From: a virus | Taxonomy: Duplodnaviria > Caudoviricetes | DNA length: 57,111 nucleotides | Reading direction: 5' to 3' (one strand) | Virus record (IMG/VR): IMGVR_UViG_3300037847_002035 | Coordinates: 1 to 57,111 of that record | Part shown: positions 37,884 through 44,777 of the stretch, piece by piece | How the letters are laid out: the number at the start of each line of letters is the position of its first letter | Numbering within the stretch: the stretch's first letter is position 1 | Translations under genes and position numbers: made by a program | Notes under the pieces: generated by a model | What the model was told of the DNA's origin: nothing | Seen by the model: the letters and a program-made list of their open reading frames with translations, nothing else | Database searches by the model: none

Positions 37884-38417
37884 ATGATAAAGCAGTTAGT
37901 TCTTAGCGTTGCTGTACTCACTATGATCCCTAGTGGGTCTGAAAGTGCATCAATCGCAGAAGCAGGTGAATATCACTCTGCACTAACAGAACAGGTTTGT
38001 CTTGCGAACAATATCTATTGGGAAGCAAGGAACCAAACAGAGGAAGGAATGATCGGTGTTGGTCTTGTGGTACGCAATCGTGTTAATGATAATCGTTTCC
38101 CACATTCGTATTGCGAGGTGGTGCATGAAGGACCTACTCGTCCAAGTTGGAGGAACCCAGACACTCGAATCCCTGTTAAGCATCGTTGCCAGTTCTCTTG
38201 GTATTGTGATGGCAAGTCTGATGATATTCGTTCTAACGAGTTGGATATTTATGCCATTGCTAGTGACATTGCTCATCGAATTTATTCTGGTGACATCACC
38301 GACATTACTAATGGTGCTACGCACTATCATGCAGACTATGTGATACCTGCATGGGCGGCAACTAAAATAAAGACAATACAAATTGACAATCACATATTTT
38401 ATAGATGGGAGTTTTGA
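37884..38417 (+). CDS. SleB-like cell wall hydrolase (Hydrolase_2)
   Basis: CLA.NIYWEAR, NRV, CQFSWYCDG, GATHYHA, HIFY. Confidence 0.92.
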   Translation: MIKQLVLSVAVLTMIPSGSESASIAEAGEYHSALTEQVCLANNIYWEARNQTEEGMIGVGLVVRNRVNDNRFPHSYCEVVHEGPTRPSWRNPDTRIPVKHRCQFSWYCDGKSDDIRSNELDIYAIASDIAHRIYSGDITDITNGATHYHADYVIPAWAATKIKTIQIDNHIFYRWEF

Positions 38418-38701
38418 TGACACCTTATGAAGAAATAGATTATAAGTTCAACGAAGACAAGTTACTTGCTGAATTTAAAGAGTACATAGATGGAACCTAC
38501 AACGCCCATTACTCCAAAGAAAAATTCCAAGCGACTGAGTTTATCGTGGATAGCGGTCACGGCACTGGGTTCATGATTGGAAACGTGATGAAGTATGCAC
38601 AACGATACGGCAAGAAGGGTTCCAATGCAGATGCTAGGAAAGACTTGCTTAAAGTGTTGCACTATGCCCTTATGCAACTTCATGTCCATGACTCTACATA
38701 A
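38417..38701 (+). CDS. DUF3310-like phage protein
   Basis: HY, GF.IGNVMKYAQRYGKK, DLLK..HY. Confidence 0.75.
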   Translation: MTPYEEIDYKFNEDKLLAEFKEYIDGTYNAHYSKEKFQATEFIVDSGHGTGFMIGNVMKYAQRYGKKGSNADARKDLLKVLHYALMQLHVHDST

Positions 38702-39179
38702 CTCCGCTAGAACTTTTCATATACATGTAAACAAAGATACCTATTAGACCAAGTATGGTGACTCCTAATGGAATAGCAATCATAAGTTTTTCTTGAAACT
38801 CTGCTTGCTTCTTCAATGCTTCTCTTCTCAATTCTTCGAGACGTTCTTTTTCTTCTTTGATTCTCTGTTGACGTAGCGCGACAATTTCTTTCCACGTTCC
38901 CCAACCGAATCTATGATCGATTAGTTCACGCATTTCTTCCATTTGCTCTGCCGCAAGTTTTGCATCGATTACCTCTTTGGCAACCGATTTAATTCCTAAC
39001 TGGTCAGAGACAGAGTTCCCTCTTTCGACTTTTGCTTTCTGAACTTGAGCATTACCGTCTAAGAGGTTCTCTAACTGAGTACCAATCTCACCAATGTCTT
39101 TTACTGTATTGATATTCGATTTGATGAAATCCACTGACTGTTTCACCAAAGCAATACCTGCTAAAACTTCTGCGACCAT
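38694..39179 (-). CDS. coiled-coil protein with C-terminal TM helix
   Basis: 161-aa ORF; late promoter upstream. Confidence 0.75.
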   Translation of the reverse strand: MVAEVLAGIALVKQSVDFIKSNINTVKDIGEIGTQLENLLDGNAQVQKAKVERGNSVSDQLGIKSVAKEVIDAKLAAEQMEEMRELIDHRFGWGTWKEIVALRQQRIKEEKERLEELRREALKKQAEFQEKLMIAIPLGVTILGLIGIFVYMYMKSSSGVM

Positions 39180-39237
39180 TTTTTTCTTTCATTTAAATTT
39201 TAATATAGGTCACAGGTTTAATCTAAGTCAGTACTGG

Positions 39238-39245
39238 TATTTATA
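39238..39245 (-). promoter_or_regulatory. T4-type late promoter TATAAATA
   Basis: + strand TATTTATA upstream of the gene starting at 39179. Confidence 0.6.
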
Positions 39246-39260
39246 AGTATTATATATACT

Positions 39261-39690
39261 ACTGTAGATGTTGGAGGATATTCTGGACATGGGGGCAGTA
39301 CCCATCACCTCCACCAAAATTACATGGGGAAAATATGGACGATAAAGATAAAATAATAGACATAAAACGTACTACTAATGAATTTGAAGTCGGAGTTAGA
39401 TTATTAGGAAACGAACTAATAGGAATACGACTTGCATCAACTAACGCAAGTGGCAAGATGATTCTCTGGGCAGTGCTATTATTATTCTTTACATTCATGA
39501 TCATGGAAGTCTTTGGGTTCAACCAATACTTTCTATCCACGTAATTTTGATGGGGGTGAACTAGGTTCGACAGGTATTTGAGTCTACGAAACACAAATGC
39601 AAACGATAATTTTGCACCATCTGGATTACGCCTAGCGGCATAATCACAGGGGGTTGGGCACTTACCTAGCAACAGAAAAGTGTCACCACA
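39261..39690 (+). ncRNA. ssrA: circularly permuted two-piece tmRNA, alphaproteobacterial type (outer ends approximate)
   Basis: acceptor piece has T-arm ATGGG-GGCAGTA-CCCAT and CACCTCCACCA (ends 39316); coding piece starts GGGGGTG at 39552, giving a G3.U70 stem; tag ANDNFAPSGLRLAA* at 39599-39643. Confidence 0.93.
39335..39544 (+). CDS. 69-aa membrane protein encoded inside the tmRNA intervening segment
   Basis: GGGGA RBS, ATG, C-terminal hydrophobic helix; fills the loop between the tmRNA pieces. Confidence 0.65.
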   Translation: MDDKDKIIDIKRTTNEFEVGVRLLGNELIGIRLASTNASGKMILWAVLLLFFTFMIMEVFGFNQYFLST

Positions 39691-39709
39691 CACAACACAG
39701 GAGATCACA

Positions 39710-39937
39710 ATGGCAAATCCATATCAAATCCGTTACGATGTTCTTGCAATGGCAAAGGATATCGCAGACAAGAACTACGAAATGCAAAAAGAACTTGCAT
39801 GGAAAATGATAGACATGGCAAAAGATAATTCAGATCAAGTCATGGATGCTTGGAAAACTTATGTCCCAAAGGCAGTAACGCCAGAGGAGATAAAGGAGCA
39901 AGCAGATAAACTATATGAGTTCGTTACCAAGAAATAA
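39710..39937 (+). CDS. hypothetical protein
   Basis: AGGAG RBS; NPYQIRYDVL.MAKD...A.KLYEFV. Confidence 0.75.
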   Translation: MANPYQIRYDVLAMAKDIADKNYEMQKELAWKMIDMAKDNSDQVMDAWKTYVPKAVTPEEIKEQADKLYEFVTKK

Positions 39938-39972: not shown

Positions 39973-40267
39973 TAAAAATTACAGTAGAGTTATAGTGTCT
40001 TTCATTATCACCAATAATACTGTAGTTGGAACTTCTATAAGAATTGTAAGTACCTTCACTGTCAAAATCCTTTTGATAAGTTATGTATGTACCGTCAGAA
40101 GATAAAGTTTCAGTAATTGTTAATTTGCCTGAATTTTCTAGACCATCTAATACTACATCTATATCACTATCTTCAGTTTTATGATCATTCCAAAAATCAT
40201 CTACAGTTTCCCAAGTTTTATCAGGATACTTTGTAGAAAGTATTTTAAGTGTTGTTCTGTATGCCAT
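39959..40267 (-). CDS. hypothetical protein (AT-rich cassette)
   Basis: 102-aa ORF overlapping the upstream gene. Confidence 0.7.
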   Translation of the reverse strand: MAYRTTLKILSTKYPDKTWETVDDFWNDHKTEDSDIDVVLDGLENSGKLTITETLSSDGTYITYQKDFDSEGTYNSYRSSNYSIIGDNERHYNSTVIFRGSV

Positions 40268-41213
40268 TTATCTTTTCCAATAAATTATTATAAAAATCTT
40301 TAAATTTAGGTTCTAATACGCTCTTTATGTATTTATCATATAAGTACCACTCATTTTTAAATTGATCAATTGTTTTTTCTAAATAATCTCTTATCTCATG
40401 TTCTAAATCAAATACATCTTTTGGCAACCTGTCAAATCCAGTATAGTCAGTCATAGGCATACCAAATCTTCTAATATGACCATCTTTACGATCTTTGTTA
40501 TAGTTCACTATAGGTTTTCTACTAACTAAGTTTGGATAGAATGATCTATAAAATTGATTTTTATGACACATTAAACAATTTATAAAACCGTCTTCCATAT
40601 CTGAAGAGTGACTATCCCCATCTGTATTATACTTAGTACCATTGATAAATTCTATTGTCTCATCTTCAATGTACCAACTTAATTGCTGTTCTGGTGTGTG
40701 ATTAAAAAATGCTCCTTCACCAGTATCCTTAAAAAACAATTTGAAAGATTGTTCTTCTTTTCCATATATACCTGATATCTCTCCAGATTGTTCTCTTGTT
40801 AAATCTGGTTCACCAAGACCTAATATTGGATAACCATCAACCTTTTTTGCTACATGCATATAATACAGTATTTGTGGACTAACTGCTCTAGACTTATGAG
40901 CAATATCTAACCATTCAGTGCCTTTCCAAAAGTTGTGAACATCAGCGTCATATAATGTATATTTTATATTATAAGCATCACACCAATCTATTGCATATTT
41001 TATATCATAATCATTCCAACCATCATTATATCTCATAATAAAAATTTCATGAGGCACTTTTGCTAAACGAAAAGATTCTCCAATCACATTAGAATCTAAT
41101 CCACCACTTAAAAATATTACAGGTTTTTTTTGTTCTTCGTAAATCTTTTGTGCTGAAAGTATATTTTCTTCTTGCCATGAGTTTGGCAATCTATTTATTT
41201 TCGATTGAAACAT
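40245..41213 (-). CDS. PP-loop (adenine nucleotide alpha hydrolase/asparagine-synthase-like) protein
   Basis: FLSGGLDS PP-loop motif. Confidence 0.7.
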   Translation of the reverse strand: MFQSKINRLPNSWQEENILSAQKIYEEQKKPVIFLSGGLDSNVIGESFRLAKVPHEIFIMRYNDGWNDYDIKYAIDWCDAYNIKYTLYDADVHNFWKGTEWLDIAHKSRAVSPQILYYMHVAKKVDGYPILGLGEPDLTREQSGEISGIYGKEEQSFKLFFKDTGEGAFFNHTPEQQLSWYIEDETIEFINGTKYNTDGDSHSSDMEDGFINCLMCHKNQFYRSFYPNLVSRKPIVNYNKDRKDGHIRRFGMPMTDYTGFDRLPKDVFDLEHEIRDYLEKTIDQFKNEWYLYDKYIKSVLEPKFKDFYNNLLEKINGIQNNT

Positions 41214-41619
41214 AACAATTCATTCCATAATCTGCTTTTATAAATTCGCTTTTTTTAATAAAACCAACTCTTTGGTATACAGGTAAAGATTTTTCTCTAG
41301 GAAAACTCCAAACAAAATCGACATATTTAAAACTATGTTCTATCGTATGCTGTAATAGTTTTTTGCCTATATTTTTATTTCTATATTCTTTTATAACATA
41401 TAATCCTCTAGATCTAAACTTATCAGGTTCAGACATATGGCAACTATTAACTCCAACTAATTTATTATTTTCATAATAACCAAAATAAAAAACATCTATA
41501 TTGTGCATATCACTAAATCCATTTAAATATTTCATATTAGAATATTCTAGATGATTTCTATGTGGATGTAAATATTCCCATAATTCACAGACTTGAGTGA
41601 AAGAAATATTTTTTATCAT
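41191..41619 (-). CDS. GNAT acetyltransferase
   Basis: RSRGLYV..EYRNKNIGKKLL, VYQRVGF. Confidence 0.85.
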   Translation of the reverse strand: MIKNISFTQVCELWEYLHPHRNHLEYSNMKYLNGFSDMHNIDVFYFGYYENNKLVGVNSCHMSEPDKFRSRGLYVIKEYRNKNIGKKLLQHTIEHSFKYVDFVWSFPREKSLPVYQRVGFIKKSEFIKADYGMNCYVSIENK

Positions 41620-41635
41620 ATAATTAAAAAACCTC

Positions 41636-41664
41636 TTGACAATCGCTTTTAGTTGTGGTACTAT
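41636..41664 (+). promoter_or_regulatory. sigma70-like promoter
   Basis: TTGACA-17-TACTAT. Confidence 0.65.
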
Positions 41665-41687
41665 AATTTGTATTTAGAGAGGTTATT

Positions 41688-42134
41688 ATGCAAGAAAGAA
41701 AAATAGTCTATGTGGATATGGATGGGGTCTTGGTTGACTTTCAGTCTGGTATAGATGCTTTAGGTGAAGGACTCAAAGAAGTCTATAATGAAAGGTGGGA
41801 CGAGTGTCCTGACATTTTCTCAAAGATGGAACCTATGCCTGGTGCAATTGATGGGTTTGCTAAGTTGTCAGAGAAGTATGATACATATATACTATCAACA
41901 GCACCATGGAATAACCCTTCTGCTTGGACAGACAAGTTTGAATGGGTACAAGGCAACCTAATGCCTCATGCTTACAAAAGATTGATACTATCTCATAACA
42001 AACACTTGAATGCAGGTGACTACCTTATAGACGATAGGTTAGCAAACGGTGCAGGAAGATTCAAAGGAGAGTTACTCCAGTTCGGAACAGAGAAGTTTCC
42101 AGACTGGGATAGTATTCTAAACTACTTGTTATAA
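41688..42134 (+). CDS. 5'(3')-deoxyribonucleotidase (HAD, NT5C-like)
   Basis: DMDGVLVDF, ILSTAPW, GDYLIDDR. Confidence 0.88.
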   Translation: MQERKIVYVDMDGVLVDFQSGIDALGEGLKEVYNERWDECPDIFSKMEPMPGAIDGFAKLSEKYDTYILSTAPWNNPSAWTDKFEWVQGNLMPHAYKRLILSHNKHLNAGDYLIDDRLANGAGRFKGELLQFGTEKFPDWDSILNYLL

Positions 42135-42144
42135 GGAGAGTTTA

Positions 42145-42300
42145 ATGAATCGCGCTGAGAGAAAGCACAAAGATAAATGTGCACGTAGAAGACGTTCAGT
42201 CATCAAGAAGATAAGAGAGAATCGTATTTTAAATGTTTTTGCTAGGTTGAGATCTCGCAGGAAGAAATTTAAAAAAAATAAAAAAGTACTTGACAAATGA
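42145..42300 (+). CDS. 51-aa highly basic peptide (not in the ORF track)
   Basis: AAGGAG RBS; MNRAERKHKDKCARRRRSVIKK... Confidence 0.6.
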   Translation: MNRAERKHKDKCARRRRSVIKKIRENRILNVFARLRSRRKKFKKNKKVLDK

Positions 42301-42318
42301 ATAAGACTGTGTCATAAT
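42290..42318 (+). promoter_or_regulatory. sigma70-like promoter
   Basis: TTGACA-17-CATAAT. Confidence 0.7.
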
Positions 42319-42342
42319 ATATTTGTAATGAGAGGAGATATT

Positions 42343-42885
42343 ATGAGAACACAAAAAGAATATTTTGATATTGGATTACAAGGTTTACTTAGAGATAAAA
42401 ATTATAGAGATTTGGGTAAACTTTTTGCAGAAGCGAATGAATATTTTCAACAAGATTGGATTAATGAAAACTGCGATTTTCAAGTAAAAAAAAGAAACGA
42501 TTTTGATGATGATGCAGATGCAAGTGGTTATGATTTAATCTCTACTGATAGTAATATGAAAATTCAATCAAAGTTAAGAGCAACAACAATTCACCTAGAA
42601 CAAACAAGAAGAAAGTCTGGTAAGAATACAATCGCAGAAAACAATACAGGCCATGTAAGATACAAAGTAAGTGAATTAGATGTAGTCCTTGTATCAAGAC
42701 CTAACTTAGATGAATATGACAATATGGATAAATGGGAACTGATTGCCTTACCTACCAAAGATATTGAAGACCCAAAAACTCCAGGATATTGCTATGCAAA
42801 TGTACCAAAAAGAATCTGGTCTAAATACATTGGTCATACCAAAGAAGTGTTAGAGGAAGTATATGAATCAGTATGTAGTAGGTAA
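42343..42885 (+). CDS. putative restriction endonuclease-like protein
   Basis: GYDL...KIQSK resembles a PD-(D/E)xK core; coupled to an MTase; start ATG 42343 after GAGGAG. Confidence 0.5.
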   Translation: MRTQKEYFDIGLQGLLRDKNYRDLGKLFAEANEYFQQDWINENCDFQVKKRNDFDDDADASGYDLISTDSNMKIQSKLRATTIHLEQTRRKSGKNTIAENNTGHVRYKVSELDVVLVSRPNLDEYDNMDKWELIALPTKDIEDPKTPGYCYANVPKRIWSKYIGHTKEVLEEVYESVCSR

Positions 42886-43786
42886 TAATTTAGATATAGT
42901 AAAAGATATAAAATGTGATTTAGTTTACATTGACCCACCATATAATACTGGCAGAGATTTTGGTGATTACAATGATAAATGGAAATCTATGAAAATATAT
43001 TCAGAAGAATTTTTATATCCAAGAATTAAATTGTGTTATGATATTATTAATAATAATGGAAATATTGTGGTTCATATTGAACCTAAAAATAGTCATTGGG
43101 TAAGATTTATTTTAGACGATATATTTGGTAGTAAATTTTTTCGTAATGAAATAGTTTGGAAAACTGGTGGTCATGCTAAAAACAAAAAACAATTGGGTCG
43201 TATGCATGATACTATTTTAGTTTATTCAAAATCTAATAAATCTACATTCAATCCTCAATATCAACCATATGATGAAGGATATTTAAAAAATACAAAAATA
43301 GATAATAGAGGAAATTATACAACCACTGCTATTCATAATTCTCAACCAGACGTTAATCCTAGATTAAATTTAAGGTATGAGTGGAATGGACACTTAAAAC
43401 AATGGTATACAACAAAAGAAAAGATGCAAGAATTACATGATGATGATAGGTTAGTTTATAATCAAAATGGTGTTCCTAGAGTTAAAAGATATGTTCATGA
43501 ACTTGATGGAATACCAATCACAGATTTATGGATAGATATTAGTAATACTCAAAGTGGGGAAAAAGTAAATTATGCAACACAAAAACCAATAAAATTATTG
43601 GATAGAATTATTAATATGTATTCAAACGAAAATGATTTAGTGGTAGATATTTTTGCTGGTAGCGGAACTACTGGAGTATCTGCTATAAAAAATAAAAGAA
43701 AATATTTTTTATGTGATATAAATCCAAATGCAAAAAAAATATTTGATAAAAGAATAAAAGGACTTGACTCTTGTTTTTTTATTTGA
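42863..43786 (+). CDS. N6A/N4C DNA methyltransferase (beta class)
   Basis: IDPPY N-terminal; TQKP and DIFAGSGTT C-terminal. Confidence 0.92.
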   Translation: MNQYVVGNNLDIVKDIKCDLVYIDPPYNTGRDFGDYNDKWKSMKIYSEEFLYPRIKLCYDIINNNGNIVVHIEPKNSHWVRFILDDIFGSKFFRNEIVWKTGGHAKNKKQLGRMHDTILVYSKSNKSTFNPQYQPYDEGYLKNTKIDNRGNYTTTAIHNSQPDVNPRLNLRYEWNGHLKQWYTTKEKMQELHDDDRLVYNQNGVPRVKRYVHELDGIPITDLWIDISNTQSGEKVNYATQKPIKLLDRIINMYSNENDLVVDIFAGSGTTGVSAIKNKRKYFLCDINPNAKKIFDKRIKGLDSCFFI

Positions 43787-43792
43787 TATAAT
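43764..43792 (+). promoter_or_regulatory. sigma70-like promoter
   Basis: TTGACT-17-TATAAT. Confidence 0.7.
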
Positions 43793-43820
43793 AATTACAT
43801 AACAAAAGAGGAGATATGTA

Positions 43821-44777
43821 ATGGCACATATGGTAGAAACAATGGCATACGCAGGAGAAGTTCCATGGCATGGACTTGGCGTACCAGTTTCTAATGATTT
43901 AACACCAGAACAAATGATGGTGAAAGCAGGGGTTGACTGGACAGTTGCCGAAGTTGAATCTTATATTGATTTCAATGGAGAGCAAGTTCCAACAGGTCAG
44001 AAGTCGTTAGTGCGTACAACTGACGGTAAGATCCTTACCAATGTTGGTAAAGGTTGGAACCCTTGTCAAAACGCAGAAGCGTTTAACTTTTTTCATGAGT
44101 ATGTAATGGCAGGTGACATGGAAATGCACACTGCAGGTTCATTACAAGATGGTCAGATTGTCTGGGCACTTGCAAAAGTAAAAGACTCTTTCGAACTGTT
44201 CAAAGGTGATACAGTTGAGTCATACTTACTTTTCTCAAACCCACACAAGTATGGTAAATCCATCAATGTGATGTTTACTCCAATTCGTGTTGTTTGTAGC
44301 AACACGTTGACTTTTGCGGTTGATAGCGGTTCAGATCGTCAAGTGAAGATCGGTCACCGAGGTGTCTTTAGTCCTGAGATCGTAAAAGAACAGTTAGGTA
44401 TTGCAACAGAGAAGATGGCAAAATACAAAGAGATAGCATCGTTTCTCGGTTCTAAGCGATACACTAACGAATCGTACATTGACTACATCAATACAGTTTT
44501 CCCACGTTCTTCTGACAAGCGAGTCAAAGAAGGTATGACAACTGCAGAGTCATTGTCACGAAATGCTAAACTTGCTCTTGATGTGTTAGAAACACAACCA
44601 GGTGCAAACTACGCAGAGGGTTCGTGGTGGCAAGCATTCAACTCCATCACTTACATAACAGATCACGTACAAGGTCATAACCAAGAGAATCGTCTTGCAA
44701 ACAGTTGGTTCGGTTATAACCAAAGTAAGAAACGTGATGCGTTGCAAACTGCAATCAAATTTGCAGAGGCGGCATAA
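43821..44777 (+). CDS. DUF932 / phage-plasmid-like protein
   Basis: PWHGLG, TAGSL, TPIRVVCSNTL, W.AFN. Confidence 0.88.
   Translation: MAHMVETMAYAGEVPWHGLGVPVSNDLTPEQMMVKAGVDWTVAEVESYIDFNGEQVPTGQKSLVRTTDGKILTNVGKGWNPCQNAEAFNFFHEYVMAGDMEMHTAGSLQDGQIVWALAKVKDSFELFKGDTVESYLLFSNPHKYGKSINVMFTPIRVVCSNTLTFAVDSGSDRQVKIGHRGVFSPEIVKEQLGIATEKMAKYKEIASFLGSKRYTNESYIDYINTVFPRSSDKRVKEGMTTAESLSRNAKLALDVLETQPGANYAEGSWWQAFNSITYITDHVQGHNQENRLANSWFGYNQSKKRDALQTAIKFAEAA

Follow-up and report, generated by a model that had tools for sequence, protein, structure and literature searches.

The spacers of two-piece tmRNA genes are usually seen as short linkers, which are discarded when the tmRNA matures by RNase P cleavage and 3' processing, as for tRNA. 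At one locus in viral DNA, such a spacer appears to hold a protein-coding gene. Is this a genuine gene, does it belong to the tmRNA locus or to some inserted element, and how might it be expressed from a piece of RNA that is cut out? We analyzed the whole stretch of 57,111 nt (the window), which is a portion of the genome of a T4-like marine myophage. The features that the argument needs are:

37884..38417, + strand: cell-wall hydrolase gene, a candidate endolysin (Pfam Hydrolase_2, E = 1.4e-20)
38694..39179, - strand: divergent gene whose 161-aa product has a C-terminal membrane helix and is 43% identical (E = 7e-31) to L173:761-1501
39213..39263, + strand: leader and putative promoter region of the ssrA unit (the RF01849 model starts at 39213)
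39264..39316, + strand: acceptor (3') piece of the tmRNA, with the T arm, the 3' strand of the acceptor stem, and the encoded CCA (RF04321 alignment, model positions 1-64)
39315..39327, + strand: left arm of the closing helix, CAAAATTACATGG, overlapping the final two bases of the CCA (repeat search, predicted folds, covariation)
39317..39551, + strand: intervening segment (IVS, or spacer), 235 nt, not in the mature tmRNA (an insertion in both Rfam alignments)
39326..39330, + strand: Shine-Dalgarno-like GGGGA, 5 nt before the ATG (from the sequence)
39335..39544, + strand: 69-aa ORF, a predicted small single-pass membrane protein of a phage-only family (ORF list, family searches, dN/dS)
39537..39549, + strand: right arm of the closing helix, CCACGTAATTTTG, including the ORF's stop codon TAA at 39542-39544 (sequence, repeat search)
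39552..39687, + strand: coding (5') piece of the tmRNA; its GGGGGTG supplies the 5' side of the acceptor stem, which includes G3.U70 (RF01849 matches as far as 39687)
39599..39643, + strand: tag reading frame, ANDNFAPSGLRLAA, then a stop codon (translation; related tags in relatives)
39710..39937, + strand: 75-aa ORF that follows the tmRNA directly and is preceded by a GGAG ribosome-binding site (ORF list)

The tmRNA gene and the gene within it

Judged by its matches to two Rfam families, the locus is a circularly permuted two-piece (alpha-type) tmRNA gene. RF04321 matches 39264-39643 with 75.4 bits (the gathering cut-off is 47), and RF01849 (alpha_tmRNA) matches 39213-39687 with 69.3 bits (the gathering cut-off is 50). 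ARAGORN called no tmRNA anywhere in the window, and we set this negative aside because Rfam detects the tmRNA. The acceptor piece, with an encoded CCA at 39314-39316, lies upstream of the coding piece, and the two pieces form a 7-bp acceptor stem (CACCTCC-ACCA at 39306-39316 with GGGGGTG at 39552-39558) that includes G3.U70. The frame that begins at the resume codon, ANDNFAPSGLRLAA, ends in a hydrophobic ...AA and is followed by a stop codon. The acceptor piece has an exact 32-nt match in more than 119 viral contigs (among the matches listed). Covariation (TG/CA, AG/CT, CG/CG) is seen in both the acceptor stem and the T arm of the loci that carry the ORF. Even where synonymous sites of the ORFs have diverged to saturation, these loci retain G3.U70, the CCA end, and an ...LAA tag. 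The closest tmRNA without the 69-aa ORF family is only about 51% identical to the window's over the mature parts. An earlier, sequence-only reading of this DNA had described a permuted tmRNA with elements nested in it, and every one of these elements is present in the same positions. In particular, the spacer between CCA and GGGGGTG, which had been put at about 235 nt, runs from 39317 to 39551 and is exactly 235 nt. The inverted repeat that bounds it does pair at 12 of 13 positions (CAAAATTACATGG at 39315-39327 with CCACGTAATTTTG at 39537-39549); the lone mismatch is an A.C at 39324/39540.

The loop was said to be filled by a 69-aa ORF with a ribosome-binding site and a transmembrane helix, and this description is accurate. 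The ORF runs from 39335 to 39544 on the + strand. GGGG at 39326-39329 lies 5 nt ahead of its ATG, where relatives have GGAG or GGAA; the first two G's of the GGGGA fall within the closing helix. Residues 42-62 of the product are hydrophobic, and AlphaFold2 (AF2) predicts a helix at residues 38-59, with low confidence (pLDDT 65.8). The stop codon TAA (39542-39544) is indeed inside the right arm, and it ends 7 nt before the RNase P site.

The sequence-only reading would have been undermined if the ORF were not conserved, and it had suggested dN/dS as a check. The ORF is conserved. Close relatives of the protein form 22 protein clusters (65-91% identity), and dN/dS is 0.057-0.145 in 16 of 28 pairs with estimable dS, which indicates purifying selection. 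For example, the ORFs of the window and of L125 differ by 33 synonymous and 9 non-synonymous changes. Synonymous sites are saturated among the loci that we compared, 37 columns are invariant in an alignment of 21 sequences of the family, and every spacer-resident allele that we compared preserves both the frame and the ribosome-binding site. We conclude that the ORF is a genuine gene and not a chance feature.

The family is phage-only, as far as we searched. Relatives of the 69-aa protein are encoded at 290 of 404 viral pattern matches (290 viral loci), but at 0 of 181 pattern matches from 185,579 species genomes (none was found in bacteria). In a wider search, 81 clusters (at 50% identity) matched the protein with E <= 1e-3. 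Neither Pfam nor PHROGs contains a match to the ORF, tblastn of its product against 50,697 GenBank phage records found no match, and the ESM Atlas returned only viral hypothetical clusters, with no named relative. We regard the ESM Atlas similarity to MtrF (0.84) as due to chance. We sorted 80 loci with custom regular expressions (locus L130 has no Rfam match), and the ORF lies between the acceptor and coding pieces in 11 of the 80, plus one that is cut by the end of its contig. Some gene calls extend into the tmRNA: those for P0007, P0011, P0019, and P0022 have N-termini that include the translated acceptor piece, and those for P0004 and P0017 have C-termini that include the translated 5' end of the tmRNA.

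What might the protein do? Its free-standing relatives (51-69% identity) are located in phage lysis cassettes, next to Phage_lysozyme, GTA_holin_3TM, or Peptidase_M15_3 genes, which suggests a membrane or lysis-related role. This neighborhood argument is weak, and the 69-aa protein matches no holin family in Pfam or PHROGs. In the window, the divergent 161-aa gene (38694..39179) is a homolog of the gene that precedes the free-standing relatives, and the cell-wall hydrolase gene lies at 37884..38417. On the other side of the tmRNA, the 75-aa ORF at 39710..39937 is probably on the same transcript as the tmRNA; it has no match in Pfam or PHROGs, and relatives of the window have different ORFs at this position. 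As a separate observation, megablast of 20 kb of the window against phage records gave a single match, of 302 nt, to a cyanophage helicase.

The closing helix and the contents of related spacers

The inverted repeat is part neither of the gene nor of an inserted element. A search for inverted repeats lengthens the pairing to 23 nt with 87% complementarity (39305-39327 with 39537-39559), because the helix continues into the acceptor stem. The closing helix is predicted in both the MFE and the centroid folds, whether the precursor or the isolated IVS is folded. Among the matches listed, at least 9 of the first 10 positions pair in 48 of 50 distinct IVSs of 25 nt or more, while just 12% of 2042 mismatched arm combinations, which we used as a control, reach the same level. 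Arms of the same type close spacers of 29-32 nt from related phages that have no ORF, and similar arms can be read in several of the bacterial spacers that we sampled (by eye and uncounted). The helix is thus present in ORF-free spacers, and it covaries. It is a precursor helix that prolongs the acceptor stem, whatever the loop contains, rather than the end of an inserted element. The picture of a protein gene with its own stem in an excised spacer thus survives in part: the gene is genuine and the stem does close the spacer, but the stem is an ordinary precursor helix.

Two kinds of mobile element were considered and rejected. For a transposable or miniature inverted-repeat element, the arms also close cargo-free spacers, no duplication was seen, and the spacer carries the 69-aa ORF only. 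For a group I intron with a homing endonuclease, there is no Rfam intron and no Pfam endonuclease domain in the ORF; inside the spacer, Rfam gave no family match at E up to 1.

The spacers of related phages hold a variety of cargo. We sampled loci with an exact match to the 32-nt acceptor piece (among the matches listed), and their spacers range from 8 to 266 nt, with 54 distinct sequences. Some loops are empty, and others contain hairpins, a tRNA-Arg, or one of at least two families of ORFs under selection. For example, a tRNA-Arg(TCT) sits in the spacers of L034 and L043, and the spacer of L130 (441-442 nt) contains two ORFs. The second ORF family is found in spacers only, and in 31 of 31 clusters it reads through the RNase P site. 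Another comparison is between L008, whose 266-nt spacer contains a 75-aa ORF, and L067, whose spacer is 32 nt: the mature parts of their tmRNAs are 100% identical over 195 nt. Identical mature tmRNAs with different cargo imply that the loop is a permissive slot with rapid turnover of its contents. This bears on the suggestion that the gene is a small element inserted in a neutral site. The site does look permissive, but the strong purifying selection on the ORF and the lack of transposon features do not fit the rest of that suggestion.

The bacterial spacers that we sampled, for the comparison with phages that was another suggested check on the sequence-only reading, are all short. Among 103 bacterial spacers, the lengths are 3-95 nt with a median of 32, and 15 more that we inspected by eye are short as well; those of Pelagibacteraceae are about 11-13 nt. 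None of the 103 exceeds 95 nt, as compared to 47 of 113 phage spacers (among the matches listed), so long spacers are a feature of the phages. It appears that the excised IVS of a functional phage two-piece ssrA has become a cargo slot. The conserved halves of the tmRNA that flank it could act as homology arms for the exchange of cargo between co-infecting phages, and this would account for the rapid turnover.

Expression and maturation

The spacer is too tight to fit a separate promoter for the ORF, whose transcription must therefore start at the ssrA promoter, as part of the pre-tmRNA. The ssrA leader falls in the 84 nt that separate the start of the divergent gene (39179) from the tmRNA. 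A scan for the sigma-70 consensus gave nothing clear on the + strand ahead of the tmRNA, and the terminator scan detected none on the + strand either; relatives carry TTGACT/TATAAA(TA) in the leader region. In metatranscriptomes, 4 runs (from 3 studies) yielded contigs over the ORF; these are assembled sequences, whose strand and ends are not readable and which might reflect DNA carry-over. One of these contigs (X18) bridges both spacer junctions. There is precedent for transcription of a protein gene with a tmRNA: in Streptococcus pyogenes M1UK, passages of PMC9951164 describe a prophage gene that is expressed from the ssrA promoter as part of a bicistronic transcript.

We lean toward the following explanation, which we hold to be somewhat better than an even bet: this is a functional permuted ssrA, and the cargo gene in its spacer is transcribed in the pre-tmRNA, translated there or on an intermediate, and then excised. 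The 69-aa gene would be transcribed from the ssrA promoter as part of the pre-tmRNA, and the closing helix would keep the two halves of the tmRNA together across the insert. Most likely, ribosomes would translate the ORF on the pre-tmRNA or on a partly processed form of it. The predicted folds place the AUG within a helix and pair two bases of the ribosome-binding site; translation would start co-transcriptionally, ahead of the closure of the long-range helix and the acceptor stem. RNase P would then cut at 39551/39552 and 3' trimming would proceed to the CCA at 39316, which would free the pieces and remove the message. Translation from the precursor is favored by relatives whose ORFs read through the RNase P site. 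These include members of the 69-aa family (L130/L131, P0004, and P0017), with frames that extend past the RNase P site into the mature tmRNA, as well as the second family, in all 31 clusters. Because these frames cross the RNase P site, those ORFs are complete only on the unprocessed precursor.

An alternative, which was also the proposal of the sequence-only reading, is that RNase P and an endonucleolytic cut after the CCA release the spacer as a stem-closed, exonuclease-resistant mini-mRNA, which would be the main translated form, so that output is tied to maturation. We view this as unlikely. In the window, 7 nt separate the stop codon from the RNase P site, so that excision would leave a complete ORF on the released RNA, and the isolated spacer is predicted to retain its closing stem in both the MFE and the centroid folds. 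Also, the stop codon is in or at the right arm in 4 of 5 divergent spacer-resident lineages that we compared. On the other hand, only a short, AU-rich stem closes the isolated spacer, whose fold beats shuffled sequences by a modest margin (z = -2.08; 7 of 200 shuffles are as good). One metatranscriptome contig, X16 (39341-39554), covers essentially the spacer alone, and contigs from some of the runs have holes over the mature tmRNA pieces. Neither the boundaries of X16 nor the holes carry weight, because assembly contigs break at conserved words that are shared between strains. The nearest analogue is discouraging as well: the excised IVS of the 23S rRNA of Coxiella, which also bears an ORF, is described in the relevant passages of PMC4990558 as rapidly degraded. 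Finally, RNase P would remove the stop codon in L130/L131, in P0017, and in 31 of 31 clusters of the second family. These read-through alleles seem to count against the release of a mini-mRNA as a general rule, and for the allele in the window such a release is possible.

A more ambitious extension is that the spacer is a slot dedicated to expression, that translation and maturation gate one another there, that the read-through peptides are tagged by their own tmRNA, and that the halves of the tmRNA serve as portable homology arms. We doubt that all of this is so, and consider it quite a long shot. If it were true, then ribosomes that translate the cargo would melt the helix that joins the tmRNA halves, and message and stable RNA would compete; this would be a self-referential circuit that links a phage peptide to the capacity for ribosome rescue.

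A narrower version of the gating idea, which strikes us as rather improbable, is that termination by ribosomes within the right arm unwinds the helix and gives 3' exonucleases access for trimming to the CCA. The helix would otherwise bury the 3' end of the intermediate made of the acceptor piece plus the spacer, so translation of the cargo would time or license maturation. Also, cleavage by RNase P would turn the ORFs of the read-through family into obligatory non-stop messages, which are substrates of the phage's tmRNA. It is suggestive that none of the spacer ORFs that we examined stops before the right arm, that the helix runs directly into the acceptor stem and the ACCA end, and that the second family resides in spacers only and always reads past the RNase P site (31/31 clusters). 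But this argument is from geometry, and any ORF that fills the loop must stop near the right arm, whether or not this has a function. Furthermore, many related tmRNA genes have ORF-free spacers of 8 to 32 nt, and these presumably mature normally, so translation cannot be required in general.

It is very improbable that the tmRNA is a defunct relic that was split by the insertion of a gene, leaving an mRNA flanked by RNA debris: the window's tmRNA scores about 75 bits in Rfam as compared to 94-125 in relatives, has a short stretch between the tRNA-like domain and the tag, and was passed over by ARAGORN, but its scores exceed both gathering cut-offs, and the covariation of the acceptor stem and T arm and the retention of G3.U70, CCA, and the ...LAA tag despite saturated synonymous sites point to a working RNA. 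We give hardly any credence to the idea that expression of the ORF has ceased and it is now just a passenger, which is how the apparently untranslated and decaying ORF in the Coxiella 23S rRNA IVS, the closest published analogue, behaves (in passages of PMC4990558), because the low dN/dS (0.06-0.15), the saturated synonymous sites, the 37 invariant columns, and the retention of the frame and ribosome-binding site in all of the spacer-resident alleles compared argue against it.

Significance and comparison with known systems

In the literature that we searched, including passages of PMC11915505 (whose supplementary tables might list the contents of spacers), we came across no account of a tmRNA spacer with a protein gene in it. 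With annotation tools, loci of this kind are either passed over, as by ARAGORN here, or called as a tmRNA while the nested gene is overlooked. If conserved phage genes do reside in spacers, then standard annotation overlooks a hidden class of small phage proteins, in which at least two families are under selection. These loci would also be a natural case of an mRNA and a stable RNA that are cut from one precursor by tRNA-processing enzymes, and the competition between translation and RNA maturation could be tested in a cultured phage, Melnitz, which infects OM43 (strain H5P1). The conserved halves of the tmRNA would mark a recombination-friendly site for cargo, and identical tmRNAs with different inserts would offer a new handle on how marine phages shuffle small genes.

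Two-piece tmRNAs in phages have already been described (PMC9004378). The permuted tmRNAs of Alphaproteobacteria and of marine phages, such as the ssrA of Methylophilales phage Melnitz, share with our locus the gene order, the encoded CCA, G3.U70, an ANDNFA...LAA-type tag, and a closing helix in the spacer. The difference is that the sampled bacterial spacers are 3-95 nt, while the spacer in the window is 235 nt and contains a protein gene under selection. The ssrA of Melnitz itself has a 142-nt spacer with a conserved ORF of the read-through type; the word "intervening" occurs 0 times in the main text of PMC9004378. Cargo in the excised spacer of a permuted tmRNA does have precedents: PMC11915505 reports a tRNA-Ala in one spacer, which it terms "a unique feature," and a repetitive element in the longest, and protein-coding cargo goes unmentioned in those passages.

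Other stable RNAs also carry nested protein genes. The 23S rRNA IVS of Coxiella burnetii, which encodes S23p, is likewise an ORF in a stem-closed segment of a stable-RNA precursor, and it is cut out without religation, which leaves a fragmented but functional RNA (as described in parts of PMC4990558). There, RNase III excises the segment from an rRNA, whereas here the host RNA is tmRNA and excision would be by RNase P and 3' processing. According to the same parts of that paper, the Coxiella ORF is apparently untranslated in vivo and is decaying, and the excised RNA is rapidly degraded, while the window's ORF is under purifying selection. We do not assign the window's spacer to the 23S rRNA-type IVSs, as its host RNA is tmRNA and its ORF has no Pfam family; the likeness is functional only. 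Group I introns with homing endonucleases in the T-loop of tmRNA (from passages of PMC11915505) are another case of a nested protein gene that is removed from the mature RNA. But those introns are self-splicing, the RNA is religated, and the ORF is of the LAGLIDADG type, while in the window the halves stay separate and there is no match to an intron or an endonuclease. Finally, the ssrA read-through of S. pyogenes M1UK (in the portions of PMC9951164 that describe it) resembles our locus in that a protein gene is on a tmRNA-containing transcript from the ssrA promoter. In M1UK, the gene is downstream of a one-piece ssrA and is reached by reading through a terminator, whereas in the window, the gene lies between the two halves of the tmRNA.

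The tmRNA locus and the gene in its spacer

The window's 57-kb viral contig has an estimated completeness of about 32%, and it carries a T4-like replication module (a gp43-type DNA polymerase, UvsX, a DnaB-like helicase, and an SbcC-like nuclease). According to Rfam, its one RNA gene is a circularly permuted tmRNA, for which ARAGORN made no call in the window. The acceptor piece (the 3' part) and the coding piece (the 5' part, with the tag reading frame ANDNFAPSGLRLAA) are separated by a spacer of 235 nt (39317-39551). The spacer is an insertion in both Rfam model alignments, matches no Rfam family itself at E values up to 1, and is filled by a 69-aa ORF.

Features of the tmRNA locus and its upstream neighbors
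37884-38417: cell-wall hydrolase gene
38694-39179: divergent 161-aa gene; in locus L173, a free-standing relative of the 69-aa gene follows a gene with 43% identity to it (E 7e-31)
39213-39687: alpha_tmRNA, RF01849 (Rfam, 69.3 bits, cut-off 50)
39264-39643: permuted tmRNA, RF04321 (Rfam, 75.4 bits, cut-off 47)
39314-39316: CCA end of the acceptor piece
39335-39544, + strand: 69-aa ORF
39542-39544: TAA stop codon of the 69-aa ORF
39552: start of the coding piece, GGGGGTG

The sequence-only reading had described an ORF with a ribosome binding site and a transmembrane helix, and every detail of its description, including the flanking arms and the coordinates, is correct: GGGG lies 5 nt ahead of the ATG, and residues 42-62 are hydrophobic. 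An AlphaFold2 model of low confidence (pLDDT 65.8) predicts an N-terminal helix (16-35) and then a membrane helix (38-59). An opposite-strand ORF of 149 aa (39259-39708, - strand) spans the entire tmRNA locus; it is almost certainly spurious, and a gene caller could choose it over the real features.

Among 5.8 billion proteins searched, relatives fall into 22 clusters (65-91% identity, all 56-98 aa), and an alignment of 21 sequences from the family has 37 invariant columns. When 1.84 billion cluster representatives were searched with a profile, 81 clusters had E <= 1e-3 and 52 had E <= 1e-10, all with 38-159 aa. Relatives are encoded by 290 of 404 pattern matches in IMG/VR and by none of the 181 pattern matches in bacterial and archaeal genomes (one per species, 185,579 species). 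No named relative turned up in Pfam, in PHROGs, among GenBank phage records, or in the ESM Atlas. We also ran the proposed dN/dS check on the eight copies that lie in or beside a tmRNA gene. Among the 28 pairs, dN/dS was 0.057-0.145 in the 16 for which dS could be estimated, synonymous sites were saturated in 11, and one pair was identical; the window and locus L125, for example, have 33 synonymous and 9 non-synonymous differences. This conservation under purifying selection indicates that the ORF is a real gene.

The tmRNA that surrounds it is also maintained. In loci that have the 69-aa gene, covariation is seen at the two final pairs of the acceptor stem (TG/CA, AG/CT, CG/CG) and in the T arm; G3.U70 and the CCA end are retained; and the tags are ANDNFAPSG[LY][RA]LAA or ANNNFAPSGYALAA. 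Because the tag and the stems are conserved while synonymous sites in the ORF are saturated, the association must be old, with both partners under selection. The tmRNA of the ORF-carrying lineage (39552-39643 in the window) is reduced compared with those of loci L132 and L160: only about 45 nt lie between the tRNA-like domain and the resume codon, where relatives have about 80-100 nt; its Rfam scores (57-75 bits) fall below theirs (94-125 bits); and the pseudoknot region that is usual there seems to be missing.

Most relatives of the gene lie elsewhere. We sorted 80 loci with regular expressions for both tmRNA pieces. The ORF lies between the pieces in 11 (a twelfth is truncated by the contig end), immediately upstream of the tmRNA gene in one (L132), and, in two (L135 and L160), 350-480 nt downstream of a tmRNA gene whose own spacer has 28-31 nt. 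Two more have only a putative motif resembling the coding piece, over 1.1 kb away, and for 63 we detected no tmRNA within about 1.5 kb. Rfam matches the tmRNA in L132, L133, L135, and L160 and returns no match in L130, whose tmRNA was called by motif search and similarity to the window. Identity to the window's protein is 75-100% for copies that lie inside a tmRNA gene or directly ahead of one, and 51-69% for free-standing copies. The latter are found within clusters of small membrane-protein genes that adjoin Phage_lysozyme and GTA_holin_3TM genes (L173) or a Peptidase_M15_3 gene (L195). The 161-aa gene and the hydrolase gene indicate that the window retains traces of this neighborhood, so, from gene neighborhood alone, a membrane or lysis-related role for the 69-aa protein is a reasonable guess.

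The closing helix and its cargo

The inverted repeat that bounds the spacer (39315-39327 and 39537-39549) pairs at 12 of 13 positions and runs unbroken into the acceptor stem (23 nt with 87% complementarity). The helix is present in the minimum-energy and centroid folds (z = -3.43 for the precursor and -2.08 for the isolated spacer). A scan for acceptor pieces identified at least 119 viral loci, which with the window and phage Melnitz gave 121 sequences. Among the matches listed, 113 have both pieces, with 54 distinct spacers of 8 to 266 nt. Fifty of the distinct spacers have 25 nt or more, and 48 of these can pair 9 or 10 of their first 10 bases with the 3' end, mostly in a shared register. 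That much pairing occurs in only 12% of 2042 combinations of arms that were mismatched on purpose. The arms show compensatory changes between lineages (e.g., TAAACAC/GTGTTTA, TAATTAC/GTAATTA, and TGAATAC/GTATTCA), ORF-less spacers of 29-32 nt have the same kind of arms, and similar arms can be read by eye in several bacterial spacers. So the stem and the gene that had been described as a self-contained unit are both real, but the stem is not the gene's own: it is a general feature of the tmRNA precursor.

The loop that the stem closes appears to be a cargo slot, and its contents turn over quickly. L008 and L067 share 100% identity over 195 nt of mature tmRNA but have spacers of 266 nt (with an ORF) and 32 nt; L107 and L099 share 99.5%, with spacers of 121 nt (with an ORF) and 54 nt. 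Some related phage spacers are empty (8 or 18 nt) or contain simple hairpins. Other cargo includes a 37-aa hydrophobic ORF and, in L008, a 75-aa ORF; elsewhere, a gene with 49% identity to this ORF (E 1e-28) immediately precedes a free-standing member of the 69-aa family. In L130 and L131, a spacer of about 441 nt (L130:1298-1739) holds two ORFs. All members found of a second peptide family (45-62 aa, motif P-x-[KR]-Y-L-S-G) are in tmRNA spacers. This family has pN/pS of 0.2-0.7 and frame-preserving length differences, and it includes an ORF of the cultured phage Melnitz that is unannotated in its record (MZ577097).

Spacer ORFs in related viral loci
L130:1317-1526: DUF6356 protein
L130:1501-1770: member of the 69-aa family, continuing into the tmRNA 5' end
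L001:2549-2713 (phage Melnitz): second family; other members in L019, L024, L083, L091, L096, and L107

Two spacers contain a complete tRNA-Arg(TCT) gene (L034:4595-5014 and L043:3299-3720); ARAGORN calls both genes, the tRNA inside the tmRNA.

The suggested comparison with host genes set the phages apart: 47 of 113 phage spacers, among the matches listed, exceed 95 nt, while in a sample of bacterial genes of the alphaproteobacterial type, 103 spacers measured by script are 3-95 nt (median 32). Another 15 that we inspected by eye are all short (about 11-13 nt in Pelagibacteraceae), and 2 others are at contig ends.

Transcription, translation, and processing

The 69-aa gene is within the transcription unit of the tmRNA. 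Its ATG comes only about 18 nt after the CCA end. With the upstream gene divergent, the space available for a promoter on the + strand is an 84-nt gap, and a co-oriented ORF directly follows the tmRNA. We propose that the ORF is transcribed as part of the pre-tmRNA and would be translated while the precursor is still open; removal of the spacer would follow, with RNase P cutting at 39551/39552 and the 3' end being trimmed back to the CCA.

It had been suggested instead that maturation releases the spacer as a complete, stem-closed mini-mRNA, which would couple the peptide to tmRNA processing. This is possible for the window's allele, since its stop codon is inside the spacer. But relatives argue against it as a general rule. 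In L130, L131, and P0017 (a protein cluster of the 69-aa family), the ORFs extend past the RNase P site into mature tmRNA sequence, and all 31 clusters of the second family cross this site and end 36-42 nt inside the mature tmRNA, so that cleavage would remove the stop codon. Because these ORFs are complete only before cleavage, translation on the precursor is most likely.

The ORF is present in contigs from four metatranscriptome runs in three studies, and one contig bridges both junctions. These are contigs rather than reads, and carry-over of DNA is possible; what they establish is no more than the presence of the sequence in RNA libraries. RNA-library contigs also link the tmRNA halves (39316/39550) via a short spacer of the Pelagibacteraceae type (depth about 52 in run X17). 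These joints are consistent with tmRNA genes of SAR11-type hosts, which have almost the same tRNA-like domain as the phage, and they hint at a SAR11 host.

Several other elements flank these genes. An exact T4 late-promoter motif, TATAAATA, lies at 39238-39245 (- strand), 59 nt ahead of the divergent 161-aa gene. The window as a whole shows no enrichment of this motif (7 matches versus 4.9 expected), and relatives have it on the + strand, just before the tmRNA. Two phage tmRNA genes are followed at once by a known cis-regulatory RNA: a manA RNA motif in L117 (6896-7104, - strand, 64 bits) and, in Melnitz, an already published glutamine riboswitch (L001:2860-2908, 52.8 bits). In the window, the stretch directly downstream of the tmRNA locus (40001-44000) has genes on both strands and a G+C content of 0.30, versus about 0.38-0.40 elsewhere; it may be a hyperplastic or recently acquired region.

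Comparison with known systems

Phage-borne two-piece tmRNAs are already known (PMC9004378; the word "intervening" is absent from its main text). A tRNA in the spacer of one genome counts as "a unique feature" in the 2025 tmRNA database paper; the tRNA-Arg(TCT) cases are similar to it. That paper also reports a repetitive element in the longest spacer; its accessible text makes no mention of a protein gene in a spacer (PMC11915505). In the accessible article text of the literature on two-piece or permuted tmRNA, we did not find a conserved protein gene in the spacer described. The finding should be of clear interest to those who study tmRNA, RNA processing, or small phage proteins.

In Streptococcus pyogenes, a protein gene is reported to be expressed from the ssrA promoter on a bicistronic transcript (PMC9951164). 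The closest functional analogue is the ORF-bearing intervening sequence of 23S rRNA, which is excised without religation; in Coxiella, the ORF that it carries is apparently decaying and not translated, and the RNA does not last long after excision (PMC4990558).
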